From Bacteroidales bacterium (lineage in GTDB: Bacteria > Bacteroidota > Bacteroidia > Bacteroidales > JAADJA01): DNA of 64,000 bases. A program made the translations under genes and the position numbers. The stretch spans positions 308 through 64,307 of the forward strand of contig JAWKKL010000013.1 in the NCBI GenBank assembly GCA_041393275.1. The letters run 5' to 3'. The notes under the pieces are model-generated. The model did no database searches. It saw only the letters and a program-made list of their open reading frames with translations, and had not been told where the DNA came from. Each line of letters starts with the position of its first letter. Positions within the stretch are counted from its first letter, which is position 1. This document shows positions 14,450-61,392 of the stretch, one piece after another.

Positions 14450-15004
14450 TTGAACGAAAATCAGGCACATACACATCTAAATCGTTCTGACTTTGAAAAA
14501 TTATTCAAGGAATTGTATTCTTCCTTGTGCCATTTTGCTTATGGATTTATCTATGATTTTGACAATGCCCAGGAAATCGCACAGGATGTATTTATTAATT
14601 TGTGGCAAACGAGGGAAACAATAGATCCAAAAAAGTCAGTTAAATCTTACCTGTTTACATCCGTAAAAAATCGTTGCTTAAATTATATCCGTGATCATAA
14701 AAAATTCCGAAGTCAGTATTTGGATGTTGAACTGGAACTGGAAATTCCGGTGGAGGATAAAGATATTTTTTCTGAGAATGAAAGAAAAGAAAGGATAAAT
14801 CAGGCATTAGACAAACTTCCGGAAAAATGCCGCGAAGTTTTTGAACTAAGCCGTTTTGATGAGATGAAATATAAAGATATTGCCGAAAAAATGGATATCT
14901 CTATAAAAACCGTTGAAGTGCATATGTCGAAAGCCTTAAAAATACTTCGTGAAGAATTAAAGGATTTAGTGCTTTTGTTATTGATAATATTAAATTTAAA
15001 ATAA
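14450..15004 (+). CDS. ECF RNA polymerase sigma-70 factor (FecI-like, Bacteroidetes expansion family)
   Basis: AQEIAQDVFINLW, SVKNRCLNY, LPEKCREVFELSR and ISIKTVEVHMSKAL; adjacent to fecR. Confidence 0.93.
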   Translation: MNENQAHTHLNRSDFEKLFKELYSSLCHFAYGFIYDFDNAQEIAQDVFINLWQTRETIDPKKSVKSYLFTSVKNRCLNYIRDHKKFRSQYLDVELELEIPVEDKDIFSENERKERINQALDKLPEKCREVFELSRFDEMKYKDIAEKMDISIKTVEVHMSKALKILREELKDLVLLLLIILNLK

Positions 15005-15029
15005 GGGTAAATGATCCTGAATGTGTATT
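15002..15029 (+). promoter_or_regulatory. Putative cognate ECF promoter, copy 1 (fecR-TBDR)
   Basis: TAAGGGTA-N11-ATGTGTATT; a near-identical copy lies at 19781. Confidence 0.7.
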
Positions 15030-15047
15030 TTATTTGATAATAAATAA

Positions 15048-16049
15048 ATGAGCGCCAGCAACAAACATAAAGACTATGACGAATTGATCGCCAGATACCT
15101 TTCCGGCGAAACTTCAACCGATGAAGTGCTTCGATTAGAAAGCTGGGTGAAAGAAGATGAATTGAATAAAAAACGTTTTATTGAATTCAAACGGGCATGG
15201 CAATTATCCAACTCTGCTTCGAAATCTTTTGACACTAATAAGGCATGGAATAAAATTGAAGGTTCAATAGTTGAAACCCGAAAAGATACCAATGCAATCC
15301 ATTTTAAAGCTAAAAAAACAAATACCATTTTCTATCGGATTGCGGCCAGTGTTATTGTTTTACTTTCGGTTGGACTTACGTTGTATTTTTTGCTTTACAA
15401 CAAAAATGTAGAATTAATAGCCAATGATTCAGCATTAACAGAAAGGTTAATTGATGGGTCTGAAATTACACTTAACGTAAATTCAAGTTTAACTGTCTTG
15501 AAAAATTTTAATAAAAAAGAGAGACTGGTTAAACTTAGTGGCGACGCTTTTTTTGATATTAAACCAAACCCTGAAAAACCATTCATTATCAATGCCGGTA
15601 AGGCCACAATCAAGGTTTTGGGAACGTCATTTTATGTGAATGCTAAAACAGACTCACCGGAAATTGAAGTTACAGTTACTACCGGAAAAGTTGCCATGAT
15701 ATCAGAAACAGGCGAAGAAATCAATCTTATTGCCGGTGAAACAGGCCGATACAATAAACTGATTGACAAACTTATCAAAGAGGAAACCAAAGATCAAAAT
15801 GTGCTTTCCTGGAAAACCCGCAAAATTAAGTTCGAAAATACCAGCTTATTGGAGGTAGTAAAAGTGCTGAATAATTCTTACAATGTACATATTCAACTTG
15901 AAAATTCAGACCTTGAAAATTGCCGGTTGACCGCAAACTTTGATCATCAATCTTTAGCAAATGTCTTGTTAATCATTGAAGAAACCCTTGATATCACTTC
16001 GAAAAAAACAGACAATATAATAACCCTTTCGGGAAACAGGTGCAATTAG
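15048..16049 (+). CDS. fecR: FecR family anti-sigma factor
   Basis: TM helix after RIAAS; LIDGSEITLN, LSGDAFF and KVLGTSF motifs; C-terminal FENTSLLEV. Confidence 0.92.
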   Translation: MSASNKHKDYDELIARYLSGETSTDEVLRLESWVKEDELNKKRFIEFKRAWQLSNSASKSFDTNKAWNKIEGSIVETRKDTNAIHFKAKKTNTIFYRIAASVIVLLSVGLTLYFLLYNKNVELIANDSALTERLIDGSEITLNVNSSLTVLKNFNKKERLVKLSGDAFFDIKPNPEKPFIINAGKATIKVLGTSFYVNAKTDSPEIEVTVTTGKVAMISETGEEINLIAGETGRYNKLIDKLIKEETKDQNVLSWKTRKIKFENTSLLEVVKVLNNSYNVHIQLENSDLENCRLTANFDHQSLANVLLIIEETLDITSKKTDNIITLSGNRCN

Positions 16050-18664
16050 ATGGTTTGGCGTTTGAAACATATCCTCCTTTTGTTGTTAATCCTGCAATTT
16101 TATCATGTTTTCAGCCAGGATACGCTATTGAATAAAAAAATTTCATTGGATGCTGACAATGTTTCGCTTGATTGGGTTCTCGCTGAAATAACAAATCAAA
16201 CCGGTATTAATTTTTCATACAACAATAAAAGTATACAATCTGAAAAAACTACCACCCTGCATGTTAGAGATCAAAGCCTTCAGCAGGTTTTAAATGGTTT
16301 AAGTTCGGCGTATAAACTGGAGTATAAGATCGTAAAAGAGCAGATCATTTTAAAACCTTTGCGAAAAAAAGATGATCAAGTTCAACAGTTTACCGTTAGC
16401 GGCTATCTTCGCGATAAAGAAAGCGGGGAAACCCTACCCGGGGCTACTGTCCTGGCCGAAAATTCCGGTATGGGAACCATCACAAATGCTTACGGATTTT
16501 ATTCACTTACCTTACCGGAAGGTGAACATACCTTAACGTTTACTTTTGTCGGGTTTAAAGAACAAACGGAAGTCATCGAATTGACCGAGAACCTGAAAAT
16601 GAACCTTACACTGATCTTCAACACGCAACTTTTGGGTGAAATTACCATTGAAACAAACGAGCAGGTTGAACAAATTGAAAAAAGCCAAATGAGCCGAATC
16701 AAAATAAATCCCAAAAGTCTTTCAACTATGCCCGAATTTGCCGGCGAAGTGGGATTAATAAAAAGCCTGCAATCGTTACCCGGAATTAAAACCCACAGCG
16801 ATGGTTCTGCTTTTTTCTTTGTTCGGGGTGGCAACAAGGACCAAAACCTTATACTGATTGACGATGCGCCCATTTATAACCCTGCTCATTTATTTGGCTA
16901 TTATTCTGTTATTATTCCTGATGTTGCAAAGGAAATTAATATTTACAAAGGCGACCTTCCCATTGAAAAAGGCGATCGTTTGTCAAGTGTGATTGATGTT
17001 CAGACAAAAGATGGAAACCTCAATAAATTTGAATTTAATGGCGTGTTAAGTCCGTACATGTATCGGTTTTCTGCTGAAGGGCCGTTAGCAAAACAAAAAA
17101 GTTCATTTTATACTTCTTTCCGGCACTCCAACTTCAGGTGGTTATATCGAAGGGCGGCACCCGACAATGATTTGTATTTATTTGATATCAACGCAAAACT
17201 TAACTGGAGAATAAACCAAAACAACCGCTTTTATTTTTCCTTTTTTTATGGGGCTGATAATTTTACCAATTCCAACATAAATGATCCGGGTGGAATTAAA
17301 TGGTATAATTTCACCACCACACTCCGCTGGAACCATGTTTTTAATAGCCGTCTTTTTTCTAATGCAACGTTGTATGGAAGCCGCTACGAATATTCACTCT
17401 TAACTACCGGAACCCATTGGAATTCAAGCATAGGCAACGTAAGCCTCAAATATGATTTGACATGGTATTCAAACCCTGATTTAACGTTTAAATTTGGGTT
17501 TAGCCAAACCGGTCAGGATTTTGATCCAGGCAATTTAACGGAGGCAGAAAACAATCCCTACGTCCCGCAGATTGCAAAAAGTCAGGGCAATAAATTCGTC
17601 TTGTACGCCAACGGGGAACAAAATCTAACTGAACGTTTCTCTTATAAAATTGGGCTTCGTATGCCTGTTTGGAATAGCACCGGCCCTACCACTATTTATC
17701 AGTTTGATACGGAGTATAATGTTACTGATACATTGGAATACGCTGAAAATGAATCAGTCAAAACCTTTGTAAATCTTGATCCCAGGATCAGTTTAAAGTA
17801 CAAACTCGGTCAAACGGCTTCCCTTAAATTCAGCTATGGAATTTATCATCAATACATTCATCTGATTTCGAATTCTATTAGCCCATTTACTTCTTTTGAA
17901 ATTTGGTTGCCAAGCGGGCCGAACATAAAACCGCAACGGGCCGATCAGGTGGCCTTGGGGCTTTATAAGTTATTTGAAAAAACAAACCTTGAACTTATAT
18001 CTGAAGTGTATTATAAAATGATGTATAACCAGATTGATTATGAGTCGCACGCAAACCTACTTCTTAATCCATTAATCGAAGGCGAACTTAGATTTGGTAC
18101 AGGCCGATCCTATGGTTTTGAGTTTATGTTAAGAAAAACCAAAGGACGACTTACCGGCTGGGTTAGTTATACCTATTCCCGAATTTTAAATGAAATTGAA
18201 GGGTAAATAATGGACATGAATTCCCGGCCTATTACGACAGGCCCAATGACTTTTCATTGTTTCTATCCTATCATTTGACCAAAAAATTAAATCTCTCAGC
18301 AAATTGGGTGTATTACACCGGATCGGCCTTTTCAACCCCCATAAGTTTTTATTCATACAACGGATATACGGTTCCTTTATATGGAGATAAGAACAATGAC
18401 CGTCTTCCTGATTATCACCGGCTGGATGTAGCCCTGGCGTGGCAAATTAACAAACCGGAAAATAAATATCAGCACAGCTTTACTTTTGCCATTTATAACT
18501 TTTACAATCGACACAATCCGGTTTCGATCAACTTTAATAAAATAGAATCACCGGACGGAAGTTATGAGGTTCCTCAAAACCTGTATGGTTCTGAACAAAT
18601 TTTAACAACCCAAAAATACCTGGCAGGCATTATGCCTTCAATAACGTATAAGTTTAAGATTTAA
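16050..18664 (+). CDS. TonB-dependent transducer (STN, carboxypeptidase-regulatory-like, plug, barrel), frameshift near 18200
   Basis: LPGI...VRGGNKDQNLILIDDAPIYN plug; C-terminal RLPDYHRLD...PSITYKFKI. Adding one G to GAAGGGTAA joins the two ORFs (EGVNNGHEFPAYYDRPND). Confidence 0.9.
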
Positions 18665-19632
18665 TGATTAAGCATTATAAGATATATAATCAAATTAAAA
18701 TCGTCATTGCGAATCTCTGGGCAGGCATGTGGGAAGTAATGAAGCAATCTCAAAGTAGGCTGCTTTATACAATTAATTACAAAGATTGCTTCGCTCCGCC
18801 GCTTAGGCCAGCGCTATGGCTCGCAATGACGGCAGCAAGTTTGCTCCTGGTCACTTCCTGCGAAGAAAAAATTGACTGGCAATTGGAAACGGAATATGTT
18901 AATACCATCGTGGTTAACGGTATCATTACGAATGAAGTTAAATACCAGCAAATCAGATTGACTAAACCATTTGCAAGTCAAAACGATCAACCGGTAGCTG
19001 TATCCGGAGCTTCTATAAAAATTATAGTTGATAATGTCCAGGTTCAGTTTTTTGAATCGCCTGAAAATAAAGGGTATTATATCAGTGAAATACCTGTTGC
19101 CGCTACCGTTGATAAAACCTATCAATTGTTTATTCAATCTGAAGGAAAAGATTATGATGCTAAAACGTATATGATCCCAGTCATCCCTACAGCACCCCCT
19201 TACTGGGTTTATAACGCAACCAAAGAACTTTATACCATTGGTTGGCCGGCAGGTCAATACAGTCAGTTTGAGCAAGCCATGTACGAAGCAGAAATATCAT
19301 GGACTCATTTATTGGATTCTGCTTATACTGATTCTGTTTCTACTGCCAAATTGATGTATTATACCTTTAATACTATTGATGTTAGTTATGTGATTTTTCC
19401 TCAAGATAAAGAAGAGGTTTATTTTCCACTTTACAGTAAGGCTGTTGTTAAGAAATATTCCCTCACCGATGAATATGCTGCATTTCTCAGGGCTTTACTT
19501 GCTGAAACCGAATGGCAGGGAAGTTTATTTGAAGATGCCAGGGGAAATTTGCCGGGCAATATTTCCAATGGCGGACTTGGGTATTTTGGTGCCTGTTCGG
19601 TAATTTCGGATACCCTTTTGGTTGGACTTTAA
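18664..19632 (+). CDS. DUF4249-type lipoprotein partner of the TBDR, with a palindromic insert in its signal peptide
   Basis: TAATG overlap with the TBDR stop; lipobox VTSC at Cys66; C-terminal NLPGNISNGGLGYFGA. Confidence 0.82.
   Translation: MIKHYKIYNQIKIVIANLWAGMWEVMKQSQSRLLYTINYKDCFAPPLRPALWLAMTAASLLLVTSCEEKIDWQLETEYVNTIVVNGIITNEVKYQQIRLTKPFASQNDQPVAVSGASIKIIVDNVQVQFFESPENKGYYISEIPVAATVDKTYQLFIQSEGKDYDAKTYMIPVIPTAPPYWVYNATKELYTIGWPAGQYSQFEQAMYEAEISWTHLLDSAYTDSVSTAKLMYYTFNTIDVSYVIFPQDKEEVYFPLYSKAVVKKYSLTDEYAAFLRALLAETEWQGSLFEDARGNLPGNISNGGLGYFGACSVISDTLLVGL
18702..18831. repeat. Nested palindromic element (RPE/REP-like), copy 1, in frame within the CDS
   Basis: Perfect outer arms CGTCATTGCGA (18702-12) / TCGCAATGACG (18821-31). 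Perfect inner arms GAAGCAATCT (18741-50) / AGATTGCTTC (18783-92). Confidence 0.85.
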
Positions 19633-19847: not shown

Positions 19848-20954
19848 ATGAAAACAACAAAAGTAATCTTAACCGTAGGTGTCCTTTTCTTTTCGATTGT
19901 CTTTCAATCATGCCAGAAAAACGAATCAAATCTAAATCAACAGGAAAAAAACATCATGCCTGAACGCTTTAAAGTCGACATCCCCAGTTCCATCAGTTCC
20001 ATCTCATATTATAAAGATGCGAATATCGATACCCTGCAGGGAAACGATATTTATGAGCATTTACGCACGTTCATTCACATCGGGGAATGTGCGGCTGACA
20101 TTGTGGGTGAGATCATCCTTGTGATTTCGTGGCACAACCTGAGTCAACCCATGTCGTTTACATTTACAAGCGATGATGATAACCGGCTAAAACATGTTGA
20201 TATTATTGAAAATGCAACATTTGAAGGCTATACATGGCAATACAAAATGACCATTACCGATGAAGGCCCGTCAGAAAACATCGAAAACACTGCACTTCAA
20301 ATTTTCTGGGATAAATATCCGATCAAAGGCATTGCAATGTTGAATCCGTATAATATCGACCGCACCACAAATCCTATCTATGCCCAAACCATGTACCGGA
20401 TCGAATACAGCGAAGGGGGCGAAGCGGGTTATTCACATCATATGATCGTTACCATAGACGGCTTGCCCCTTGAAGAACCTCTGATTAACCCTTATTCGAT
20501 TTCAACGTTAAAAATGTTTGTGGGTAAAAATGGCGATGATATTAGTGTTTATGGAAATTCAGAACATCCAAATGCCACCTTCTTTTCTGGTGAAACTGGT
20601 TTTGACTGGGCGTTTACTGCAGCAGGAAAAGAAAGTATAAATATCGGGGTGGCCGAAGTAGGACTACCTTCAAATACATTAAATTCAAGCGACCGCTATA
20701 CCTTACTGGTAGAAAACTCAATCCACAATGTTTTTGAAAAACAGATTTATGGCGTTTGGCCATGGATTGATCCTGCGACAGTTGAGGCATACCTCTATAA
20801 TACTGAGGCACCAGGATTTTTCGACTATAATGGTTTTGTGCAGGGAAGTACTGCGCCAAACGAAAAATACAACTCACTATTAACTATTATCGCCGGATTA
20901 ACACCTTATAATCCGCTTGACATTCATAATCTTCAAATTGAATTTGACGACTAA
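19848..20954 (+). CDS. Hypothetical lipoprotein
   Basis: 368-aa ORF with lipobox FQSC; no family recognised. Confidence 0.8.
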   Translation: MKTTKVILTVGVLFFSIVFQSCQKNESNLNQQEKNIMPERFKVDIPSSISSISYYKDANIDTLQGNDIYEHLRTFIHIGECAADIVGEIILVISWHNLSQPMSFTFTSDDDNRLKHVDIIENATFEGYTWQYKMTITDEGPSENIENTALQIFWDKYPIKGIAMLNPYNIDRTTNPIYAQTMYRIEYSEGGEAGYSHHMIVTIDGLPLEEPLINPYSISTLKMFVGKNGDDISVYGNSEHPNATFFSGETGFDWAFTAAGKESINIGVAEVGLPSNTLNSSDRYTLLVENSIHNVFEKQIYGVWPWIDPATVEAYLYNTEAPGFFDYNGFVQGSTAPNEKYNSLLTIIAGLTPYNPLDIHNLQIEFDD

Positions 20955-58836: not shown

Positions 58837-61392
58837 CTATTTGTTTTTTCGAATGATCTTCTTACCTGCAATTTTTTCTCCATTCAAAGAAATGGAGATC
58901 ATGTATGTTCCTGAAGGAACGGAATTTCCAGCATCATCATTCCCCTCCCAGGTCATGGTAAATTTACCGGGCGATAAGTGGGCATTCATTAAATTTTTTA
59001 TTGGATTGCCCGCCATGTCAAAAATGATTGCCTGTACATTGCTCTTTTTTTTAAGTTCGAATGAGATAAAGGTATGGGCGTAACAAGGATTGGGGAAAAC
59101 ATCAATCTTGGTTTCCAATATGTTTTGCCGAAAAAGTTCCCTGATCCTGGTGGATGTATCCTGAAATTCATAGGCACCCATATCTATCCTGCCATTGACA
59201 AATCTTGGGTTTCCTGCTATATCAGTTGGCGGGAGATGGAGAGTGTCCCCATCAATTTTATACAGGACTATTTGTTCATTTTCGACTTTAATATATGGAA
59301 AATCTATCCCCTCCTCATACAAAGGTACCCCGGCATCAATACAGGGTGAATTCCAATACAACGAATAGGGATTATCAGAAAGTGAATCCCACAAAGGATT
59401 TGTTTCAATGTTACCATCAAGCCAGTTAAGGATATTTTGGTTATACCAGTTTTGTACATTTGATTCACCCCCCTCAATATTTGAATAACTGACATTGGCT
59501 GTGGTTATATAACTTGAAGGGCCAGAGGATCCCAACGATAATTCATAAATAGAATCACCATAAAATATCGAATTGTAAATATCCAGTTTTGAATCACCAC
59601 TAACACGTATAGCCACTCCAGCAATATCATTCTCGGTTACATTGCCATTTACTGTTGCATTAACAAGGGTCACCTCTGTATTATGACCAATCCCTAATCC
59701 CGAATGAGCACCTGTATAGCCCCAGTTTGGGTCAAGAAATCTTCTATTATTTGATAGTAGTAAATTTATAATTTCACCCTTCATACTTTCAGGTGTTTCT
59801 TCGTCCCCACTAATTACAAGGCCACCCCCCATACCGGTATCAGGGTCAGCATCTGGACCGTTGTTACTAATAACGCAATTTTCAAGACTAAATGTTCTAT
59901 TAACTTCATCATTATTACTTATCTGAAAACAGATACCACCTTGTAAATTAATAATTGAAATAGTTTTAATCTTTAAATTTGATGTATTAAATACAAAAAC
60001 TCCTGGATAAGAAGAGCTTATACAATTGCGAATTTCAATATTTTTAAAAGAAATATTATTACACCACTTTATATATAATCCACCTATATTAGAAATAGTA
60101 TATTGATTACCATATCCTTCCATCATGGTAACTTTCTGTAAACTAAAATTTTTTGTAAAGCCATATCCTCTCAGTATATAGGTCAGGGAATCAAGGTCAA
60201 ATATAGTGCTGTCTTTATGCGTTCCGATCAATGATACATAATTTCGAGGATTTAATGGGAATTTCTCATTATTTGTATGAGAAGAATAAATCCCGTTACT
60301 TAAATAGATCTTTTTGGGTTCAGTACTATCCGGTTGGATAAGTTTGTGCGCATAAGCAATTGTCTTAAGTGCTGTAGCGGGTGACAACCCATCACCGGCA
60401 TCATTGCCCTCTATCGGGTTCACATATAAATCTGCATTTACAGGATTAATTTTCGAATGTAAGATATCCAGTTCAATATCATCAACAGGCAGTTCATACT
60501 CGTCAACCGAAAAAAAGAAATGATAATCGGGGTTTAAGACAGTGAACGTATCGACTATAATCTCTTGTGACGGGGCATAATTAGTTTTAAAAAAGTCGGA
60601 TCCATATCCAGAATAATTCAGGTAAATATTGCAACGGTCTATCGGGTCAAAAATCACGGATGATCCATACCCGCAATTTATCCCACCTCCGGCAATAAGC
60701 GCATAATTATATCTGATGGTTGCCCCTGAGATATTTACGGTTGAAGACTGGCAATAAAAACCACCACCACCATCACACATATTGTTCTGGATAATACAAT
60801 GTGAAATATGTGGTTCAGCATTTATAATATATAAGCCGCCTCCCCCGCCATTTGAGTATCCACTGCCATTTTCTATGGTAAATCCTGTTATTTTTATATC
60901 GGCATTGTTGGTATTACGTATGGCTATACAACTTCCATTCTGATTTCCGTCAATTACAGTATTGTTTATATATGATTCATCAAAAGTAATAAGGTAAAGA
61001 CTTGCAATGGTGATGTCAATCTGACTGGAATTGATATCAAGGTTTTCGAAATAAGTACCCGGGTAAACCAGTATGGTGTCGCTATTGTTGGCATTTTCAT
61101 AAGCTGTTTGTACGGAAGTGTAATCACCGCCGCCATCATGTTTTACGGTTATTATTGTGGCAATCACTGGATTTGCAATCAAAAACAAAATAATACCAAA
61201 AAGACTGGATTTAAAAGAATTAATGATGGCCAGGCAACATGCCCTTATTAAATAATGTGAGATTGATCTGCGCAATATTTTAAATTTAAGATATGCACAA
61301 TTTAAACTACAGATTGCTCCGCTCATTCTTAAATTTCGACCCTTGGGCTCGCAATGACGTTTCGATGGCTCCTTTTGCTGGTTTATTAACAT
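58837..61392 (-). CDS. Secreted parallel beta-helix protein with choice-of-anchor-Q-like segment and FlgD-Ig/T9SS-like CTD; palindromic insert in the signal peptide
   Basis: ITVKHDGGGDY..PGTYFEN, GGG-rich repeats, SPCIDAG...RIDMGAYE and FPNP...WEGNDDAG. The ORF-track TTG start lies within a TAATTTTG -7 element (61423-30), so ATG 61392 is preferred. Confidence 0.85.
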   Translation of the reverse strand: MLINQQKEPSKRHCEPKGRNLRMSGAICSLNCAYLKFKILRRSISHYLIRACCLAIINSFKSSLFGIILFLIANPVIATIITVKHDGGGDYTSVQTAYENANNSDTILVYPGTYFENLDINSSQIDITIASLYLITFDESYINNTVIDGNQNGSCIAIRNTNNADIKITGFTIENGSGYSNGGGGGLYIINAEPHISHCIIQNNMCDGGGGFYCQSSTVNISGATIRYNYALIAGGGINCGYGSSVIFDPIDRCNIYLNYSGYGSDFFKTNYAPSQEIIVDTFTVLNPDYHFFFSVDEYELPVDDIELDILHSKINPVNADLYVNPIEGNDAGDGLSPATALKTIAYAHKLIQPDSTEPKKIYLSNGIYSSHTNNEKFPLNPRNYVSLIGTHKDSTIFDLDSLTYILRGYGFTKNFSLQKVTMMEGYGNQYTISNIGGLYIKWCNNISFKNIEIRNCISSSYPGVFVFNTSNLKIKTISIINLQGGICFQISNNDEVNRTFSLENCVISNNGPDADPDTGMGGGLVISGDEETPESMKGEIINLLLSNNRRFLDPNWGYTGAHSGLGIGHNTEVTLVNATVNGNVTENDIAGVAIRVSGDSKLDIYNSIFYGDSIYELSLGSSGPSSYITTANVSYSNIEGGESNVQNWYNQNILNWLDGNIETNPLWDSLSDNPYSLYWNSPCIDAGVPLYEEGIDFPYIKVENEQIVLYKIDGDTLHLPPTDIAGNPRFVNGRIDMGAYEFQDTSTRIRELFRQNILETKIDVFPNPCYAHTFISFELKKKSNVQAIIFDMAGNPIKNLMNAHLSPGKFTMTWEGNDDAGNSVPSGTYMISISLNGEKIAGKKIIRKNK
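61223..61359. repeat. Nested palindromic element, copy 2 (one half degenerate), in frame within the CDS
   Basis: AGATTGCTCCG (61311-21) and CTCGCAATGACG (61348-59) match the arms of copy 1. Central hairpin ATCTG..TGCGCAATAT/ATATGCACA..CAGAT. The distal arm has decayed. Confidence 0.7.

Follow-up and report, generated by a model that had tools for sequence, protein, structure and literature searches.

A 130-bp element near the 5' end of a DUF4249 lipoprotein gene from a Bacteroidales bacterium is a real and old part of that gene, and it is likely translated and then discarded. The explanation that we favor, with a probability of roughly two in three, is that this inverted dimer of CGTC-tagged REP units is a tolerated passenger, which would be translated as a long n-region and lost when the signal peptide is cleaved. 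The features are collected in Table 1, in positions of the window, by which we mean the whole stretch of 64,000 nucleotides that was analysed.

Table 1. Features of the element, its host operon and a second family copy (window positions)
Feature	Position	Strand	Remark
ECF sigma factor (14450-15004) and FecR anti-sigma (15048-16049) genes, head of the operon	14450..16049	+	
TonB-dependent receptor gene, directly upstream of the lipoprotein	16050..18664	+	split near 18200: ORFs 16050-18206 and 18257-18664
Predicted 65-residue lipoprotein signal peptide	18664..18858	+	13 host, 43 repeat and 9 host codons; predicted processing
Whole element: two REP-type hairpin units with CGTC tags, joined as an inverted dimer	18702..18831	.	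18703-18831 are codons 14-56 of the lipoprotein
Left unit: CGTC tag, stem of ATTGC and GCAAT arms enclosing a long loop, short tail	18702..18752	+	
Right unit, opposite orientation	18781..18831	-	read on the + strand: basic residue and beginning of the hydrophobic stretch that precedes the lipobox
Mature DUF4249 lipoprotein, from Cys66	18859..19632	+	
Second family copy: one unit, within the open 5' part of a gene for a secreted protein whose tail is of T9SS type	61308..61358	-	start codon ambiguous

The element and its host operon

The nested dyad described in an earlier note on this DNA, with perfect outer arms of 11 bp (18702-18712 and 18821-18831) and perfect inner arms of 10 bp (18741-18750 and 18783-18792), was confirmed by reading the sequence, as was its fit to the frame, since codon 14 begins at 18703 and 43 codons follow without remainder. 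The arms are nested because each half of the dyad is a CGTC-tagged hairpin unit of its own and the two units are inverted. Both units open with CGTC and then ATTGC, which pairs with GCAAT in a stem of 5-7 bp around a loop of ~25-30 nt. The RNA fold of the element has a predicted energy of -47.7 kcal/mol (z -3.86) that was equalled by none of 200 shuffles, and an Rfam search of 18400-19100 returned a single match at E 0.74, well under the gathering score.

The host ORF (18664-19632) encodes 322 amino acids and begins with an ATG that shares bases with the TAA of the receptor frame upstream. Gene order in the operon is ECF sigma factor, FecR, TonB-dependent receptor and DUF4249 lipoprotein. The Pfam DUF4249 domain spans residues 68-313, Cys66 (codon at 18859-18861) is invariant among 26 aligned proteins, and the named relatives of the protein are nearly all from Bacteroidales. 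A basic n-region, a hydrophobic h-region and a lipobox Cys conserved in homologues together point to an SPII signal. Removal of the 43 codons leaves 13 + 10 = 23 residues up to the Cys, in agreement with the signal of about 23 residues that had been predicted after excision. Insert-free homologues exist, but a near-identical empty site was not found among the sequences compared, so the insertion measures either 129 or 130 nt. Just downstream of the lipoprotein (19848-20954) we noted a predicted lipoprotein of 368 amino acids that has no credible match in Pfam or NCBIfam.

The split in the receptor gene raises the reading that the operon is dead and the frame through the insert open by accident, which we consider very improbable. 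The split corresponds to a one-base difference in a G run (window 18195-18260). A near-identical contig (X1, a single contig at depth 4.1) and a relative (X4) from public runs both carry one extra base at this place, which makes an assembly error the probable cause of the split. In addition, the closest clade keeps the mature lipoprotein at 83-89% identity with the insert open in all four members. One 245-nt contig from an RNA run is identical to the mature lipoprotein region; it was not counted as expression, as DNA may occur in such a library.

Frame, start codon and hairpin among DUF4249 homologues

The insert was followed through the best 120 of 155 homologues of the lipoprotein. Eight of them, the query included, carry a recognisable stop-free insert of 42-50 residues placed 10-11 residues before the Cys, and the seven others are homologues at 53-79% identity. 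In-frame maintenance, as the earlier note had proposed it, thus extends to all eight. Each of the eight has a Met upstream of the insert with 11-16 open codons between, like the n-regions of insert-free homologues. Identity is 21-67% in the insert versus 55-89% in the mature domain (tree lengths 5.3 versus 1.5), and insertions and deletions within the insert are whole codons. While the loops drift, the motifs encoded by the arms persist across homologues.

In a neutral simulation that kept the arms constant and excluded indels, stops arose from 8.3% of residue-changing substitutions, and only 16-25% of drifted copies stayed open. For 43 long dimers in relatives, 13 of the 86 orientations are open in the lipoprotein's frame; six of the 86 are both open and of the right length, and two of those six are a genic copy (L174, below). 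The set of homologous proteins has passed through gene calling and is biased by it. The sole candidate for a broken copy is P0041, which lies within an insert-bearing clade and is called from a Met in the right arm; annotation that restarts at an internal Met would lose the signal in genes of this kind. DNA that was picked out by its likeness, independently of gene calling, agrees with a kept frame: contigs from three runs of one study align over 253 nt in both sequences, with paired gaps and 47 substitutions, and the contig of a second relative has 1111 bases against 1089 in the window, a difference that by length would be one extra base in the receptor and 21 in the insert. The organisms behind these contigs are probably those of P0002 and P0004, and the contigs are therefore not independent of these two proteins.

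In a quick tree that covered 68 of the first 70 proteins, the full insert occurs in three groups, requiring at least three changes, and a short remnant occurs in a fourth; the eight carriers fall in only these three groups and are not independent of one another. DNA of one locus (L005) holds a collapsed remnant of 14 nt that is in frame, and in P0038 the repeat arms are eroding. This distribution is compatible both with one old insertion followed by losses and with repeated insertion. In most homologues the junction of receptor and lipoprotein is short, with stop and start overlapping or a few bases apart.

We infer that translation starts at Met1 (18664). The overlap of Met1 with the receptor stop is common to many homologues, and predicted accessibility mildly favors Met1, whose unpaired fraction is 0.42 versus 0.27 for Met26 and Met55, although this is a weak measure. 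An internal start at Met22, Met26 or Met55, which would make the element partly or wholly an untranslated lipoprotein leader or the 3' tail of the receptor mRNA, appears unlikely to us. Met26, which may be the start in the closest clade, is conserved in the closest homologues (P0001-P0004), its position holds a Val, possibly a GTG start, in P0007, P0038 and a copy elsewhere in the genome (C34, below), a start there would give a 40-residue signal, P0041 is called from the right arm as noted, and PMC3733652 cautions that N-terminal REPs may be misannotated. However, the position of Met26 is taken by Ala in P0031 and P0035, all eight carriers keep the open codons from their upstream Met, and the stop/start overlap is without difference in the relatives' contigs, among the rows listed. 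Even from Met26 about 70% of the element would still be translated, whereas Met55 would leave an 11-residue signal without a basic n-region, of a type that was ineffective in PMC11554821. The same paper gives a working range of 16-34 residues for B. thetaiotaomicron lipoprotein signals and finds signals of ~10 or ~40 residues ineffective, a range which by analogy would count against efficient export of the predicted 65-residue signal. A long signal translated from Met1 amounts to a prediction that lipoprotein signals of 60-90 residues, beyond that working range, can be processed by the export machinery of Bacteroidales.

A second, unrelated palindrome occupies the same n-region of DUF4249 proteins in 16 of the 68 proteins, and it is in frame in all six DNA loci whose junction is intact. 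It is itself dispersed in 13 of 28 congeners, where it is mostly intergenic. We observed it singly, in pairs or as five tandem copies (P0025) at loci L047 and L050-L055 and in proteins P0010-P0029 and P0042. At two other loci (L016 and L410) repeat-like DNA follows the coupled ATG with the frame broken, and a new ATG serves the gene. Other repeat-like stretches (L012, L016, L019 and L023) are intergenic, between receptor stop and lipoprotein start. Long lipoprotein n-regions of ~45-85 residues without a match to the repeat were also seen (L388, L389, L391, L146 and L154), and these may be eroded or other inserts.

The earlier note had further suggested that the mRNA hairpin tunes translation or stability within the operon. 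If the hairpin had been co-opted, so that it stabilises the receptor part of the mRNA or slows translation of the lipoprotein and thereby sets their ratio, the open frame would be a side constraint. The persistence of arm-encoded motifs while loops drift, the presence of two unrelated palindromes at one site in different clades, and the avoidance of divergent gaps by the repeat family (12 of 133 contexts versus 240 of 1020 in the background) are consistent with co-option, and REPs have been proposed as RNA elements (PMC3733652). Most homologues, however, have no repeat (42 of the 68 on the quick tree have a plain short signal), the insert is collapsed or absent in sister lineages while the arms of P0038 erode, and no conserved hairpin was found after the receptor's stop, strong folds occurring at 4 of 39 junctions versus 13 of 120 in the background. 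Co-option is accordingly improbable in our judgement: a regulatory hairpin is not required, and a lineage-specific effect is possible.

Going further, the signal-peptide n-regions of coupled Bacteroidales lipoprotein genes might be a long-lived refuge and a recurrent hotspot for several unrelated families of selfish hairpins. The repeat here would then function within the export signal, to which it would contribute a basic residue and half of the h-region, the first, while its hairpin would tune the amount of lipoprotein relative to the receptor. We put this forward as a rather unlikely proposal.

The repeat family and the position of its copies

An HMM of the unit, which was built from 25 units of the same genome and is thus partly circular, gave 35 matches there, grouped to 20 loci; 15 of these are intergenic, four lie inside ORFs and one overlaps the 5' end of an ORF. 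A strict unit pattern is present in 28 of the 29 genomes of the genus (27 of 28 congeners), while its reversed control gave no matches. The 20 loci and the spread through the genus support the earlier view of a non-autonomous, dispersed element. Relatives yielded 183 unit clusters and 137 dimers; 158 clusters have no long frame through them and 25 have one. The repeat is therefore multi-copy, dispersed, mostly intergenic and downstream of genes, and mostly arranged as inverted dimers, as is characteristic of the CGTC-tagged REP superfamily. A third palindrome of ~21 nt is nested within repeats (P0004, P0018, L052, L053, and G000:C10:51650, C44:20848, C46:24525 and C27:5502), and in genic cases it adds whole codons.

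A search of the whole order, in which 70 of 401 genomes had a match and 47 loci were read, revealed no additional copy of the element in the DUF4249 gene family. Protein-profile searches for further insert carriers gave 9 and 13 matches. The 13 that were read, our own protein aside, were mostly repeat-array ORFs plus one low-complexity protein, with no signal-peptide case, and two of the matches (P0124 and P0138) are longer proteins that carry units C-terminally. Because the known carriers P0002-P0004 were missed, the sensitivity of these searches is too low for an enrichment test. NCBIfam includes models of RPEs, in-frame palindromes that are considered below, and none of its families matched any of 22 repeat-encoded peptides at E up to 10; the peptides do not place the repeat among the RPEs.

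Several further copies lie in or near signal peptides. In the same genome a full dimer (L310:1305-1433, G000:C34:36205-36332) sits in the same frame in the signal of a MauG-type di-haem cytochrome c peroxidase lipoprotein, and a 70%-identical orthologue in a relative (L174, genome G017) has at the corresponding site an in-frame dimer of different construction, for which both strands are open in that register. Inserts were found in two of 30 loci of this peroxidase family; L359 may be an eroded third, by eye and with no HMM match. An S41 peptidase lipoprotein carries an insert at codon 17 in two of the 27 genomes having the gene (L211 in G025 and L237 in G020), and the gene in G020 is split further downstream. 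Read by eye, the 25 open clusters in relatives comprise three lipoprotein signals (the L174, L211 and L237 just described), three ambiguous 5' ends of secreted proteins (L167, L233 and L292), two single units in frame in cytoplasmic proteins (L335:1203-1238 and L205:1744-1775) and 17 spurious or unclear cases; the labels of L205, L233 and L335 come from reading the sequence and not from Pfam. The carriers of the two single units are, as we take them to be by eye, restriction-modification enzymes. The second copy in the window and another in the same genome (G000:C18:37207-37337) each lie at the open 5' end, with alternative starts, of one member of a pair of paralogous secreted proteins, and L167 and L292 belong to the same protein family with repeats at the 5' end.

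By a crude rule, signal peptides make up 2.1% of coding residues and are present in 725 of 2381 ORFs (30%). Five of the seven clear in-gene copies, in three of five gene families, are in signal peptides (P ~9e-5 at 2.1%). All three clear gene families with N-terminal inserts are secreted (0.30 cubed is 0.027), although the bias to secreted proteins among N-terminal inserts is weak when taken alone, with only three gene families. The 133 resolved contexts comprise 102 unidirectional, 19 convergent and 12 divergent ones (50 more were unresolved). Copies lie at a median of 42.5 nt from the upstream stop, and 66 of the 102 unidirectional ones are within 70 nt of it. In-signal copies lie ~38, 37, 66 and 66 nt after the upstream stop, the same distance as intergenic ones. 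The position just after a stop accounts for much of the signal-peptide enrichment.

The earlier note had inferred that the element shelters in cleaved signal peptides and expected a genome-wide bias toward them. The kept frame makes the sheltering likely, and the share of clear in-gene copies found in signals bears out the bias; active direction of the element to signal-peptide codons is another matter, and we find it scarcely credible. In its favor are the five clear in-gene copies, together with five ambiguous ones at 5' ends of secreted proteins, and the three or more changes required on the DUF4249 tree. Against it, most copies are intergenic and clustered after stops, both in this genome (15 of 20 loci) and in relatives, where 17 clusters are spurious or ambiguous by eye beyond the 158 without a long frame; in-signal and intergenic copies are equally far from the upstream stop, two monomers are in cytoplasmic proteins, and a DNA nuclease would have no evident means to read a signal peptide. 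Targeting is in our opinion largely refuted already.

The right end of the repeat appears pre-suited to sit before an h-region: it is mildly hydrophobic, and 43 of 72 intergenic right ends encode a basic residue. Selection on the encoded residues was not significant with three independent groups, either for the basic residue (8 of 8 homologues versus the 43 of 72 intergenic right ends) or for an acid-free right end (8 of 8 versus 61 of 72).

Proposed course of events and relation to known repeats

Passive shelter, in which the n-region tolerates the repeat, is likely, and the passenger explanation would run as follows. The repeat, presumably spread by an Ssn-type ssDNA nuclease, clusters just after stop codons, and because of this it would fall in the n-region of the next gene in coupled operons, where the spot just after the stop is already within the first 12-20 codons of that gene. 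Copies that break the frame would be purged by selection unless a new start codon arises, and those in the n-region would be spared, their added residues being cut away. The basic and hydrophobic residues of the right end could slot in before what is left of the h-region, a short stretch to which they may by now belong. Later the insert could collapse in frame or erode.

Both units have the tag and stem that define the CGTC-tagged REP superfamily, namely CGTC (or TGTC/CCTC) at the end of the palindrome and a stem starting with AT, and share with the CGTC REP dimers of Di Nocera, De Gregorio and Rocco 2013 (PMC3733652) the tag, the AT-starting stem, the short tail and the inverted dimers. The 8-9-bp stems and 4-5-nt loops of subfamilies CGTC-1 to CGTC-4 differ from the shorter stem and longer loop here, and our units were given no subfamily. 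The same source reports CGTC REPs in Bacteroidetes, mostly downstream of coding regions and some in frame inside ORFs. Where its main text speaks of a signal, signal peptides are not the subject, and in part 2 of 3 of its supplement file 3 no peptide has the motifs of the present repeat family. RPEs (Ogata et al., in PMC10969869) are likewise palindromes of ~130-150 bp fused in frame into host proteins, and RPE-4 and RPE-6 are CGTC REPs. RPEs are described from unrelated metabolic genes, whereas the clear dimers here are in predicted cleaved signal peptides. In-frame palindromes and intragenic CGTC REPs are thus already known from PMC10969869 and PMC3733652, respectively. A literature search, with most subscription journals outside its coverage, found no paper on repeats sheltering in signal peptides. 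The DUF4249 locus adds persistence to 53% identity, in-frame collapse, the occupation of one site by two unrelated families and an explanation from position, and so provides a dated, multi-lineage case of where and why selfish repeats survive within genes.

As to what moves the repeat, the earlier note had suggested looking for a linked RAYT or GIY-YIG gene. A GIY-YIG gene is linked to it, in relatives only. No repeat unit was found around the three RAYT-like (Y1_Tnp) matches or the single long GIY-YIG match of the genome itself, and the tag is CGTC rather than the GTAG that goes with RAYT flanking. Small Ssn-like GIY-YIG genes were found in 16 of the 29 genomes of the genus, though not in the 63%-complete genome studied here. 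At 15 Ssn-like loci in relatives, units lie on both sides in seven, on one side in one and on neither side in seven, and two GIY-YIG genes of 100 aa (Pfam GIY-YIG) are bracketed by arrays of the unit. This recalls the NTS/SRM repeats with Ssn (GIY-YIG, cd10448) nucleases in PMC11893778, where oriented CGTC-tagged hairpins likewise flank both sides of a single-domain GIY-YIG gene of ~100 aa and such repeats are treated as rarely inside genes. The flanking arrangement is seen here in relatives only, and the degenerate SRM pattern given in that paper matched neither the element nor any of the 183 related clusters. From this genomic association we infer mobilisation of the repeat by an Ssn-type ssDNA nuclease. 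In that case Ssn-like nucleases would be linked to a hairpin family that the published SRM pattern does not cover, which could represent new ssDNA specificities. Two Ssn-like GIY-YIG genes (L194:1676-1978 and L258:5822-6124) lie within dense hairpin arrays outside that pattern, and their proteins are candidates for such a specificity.
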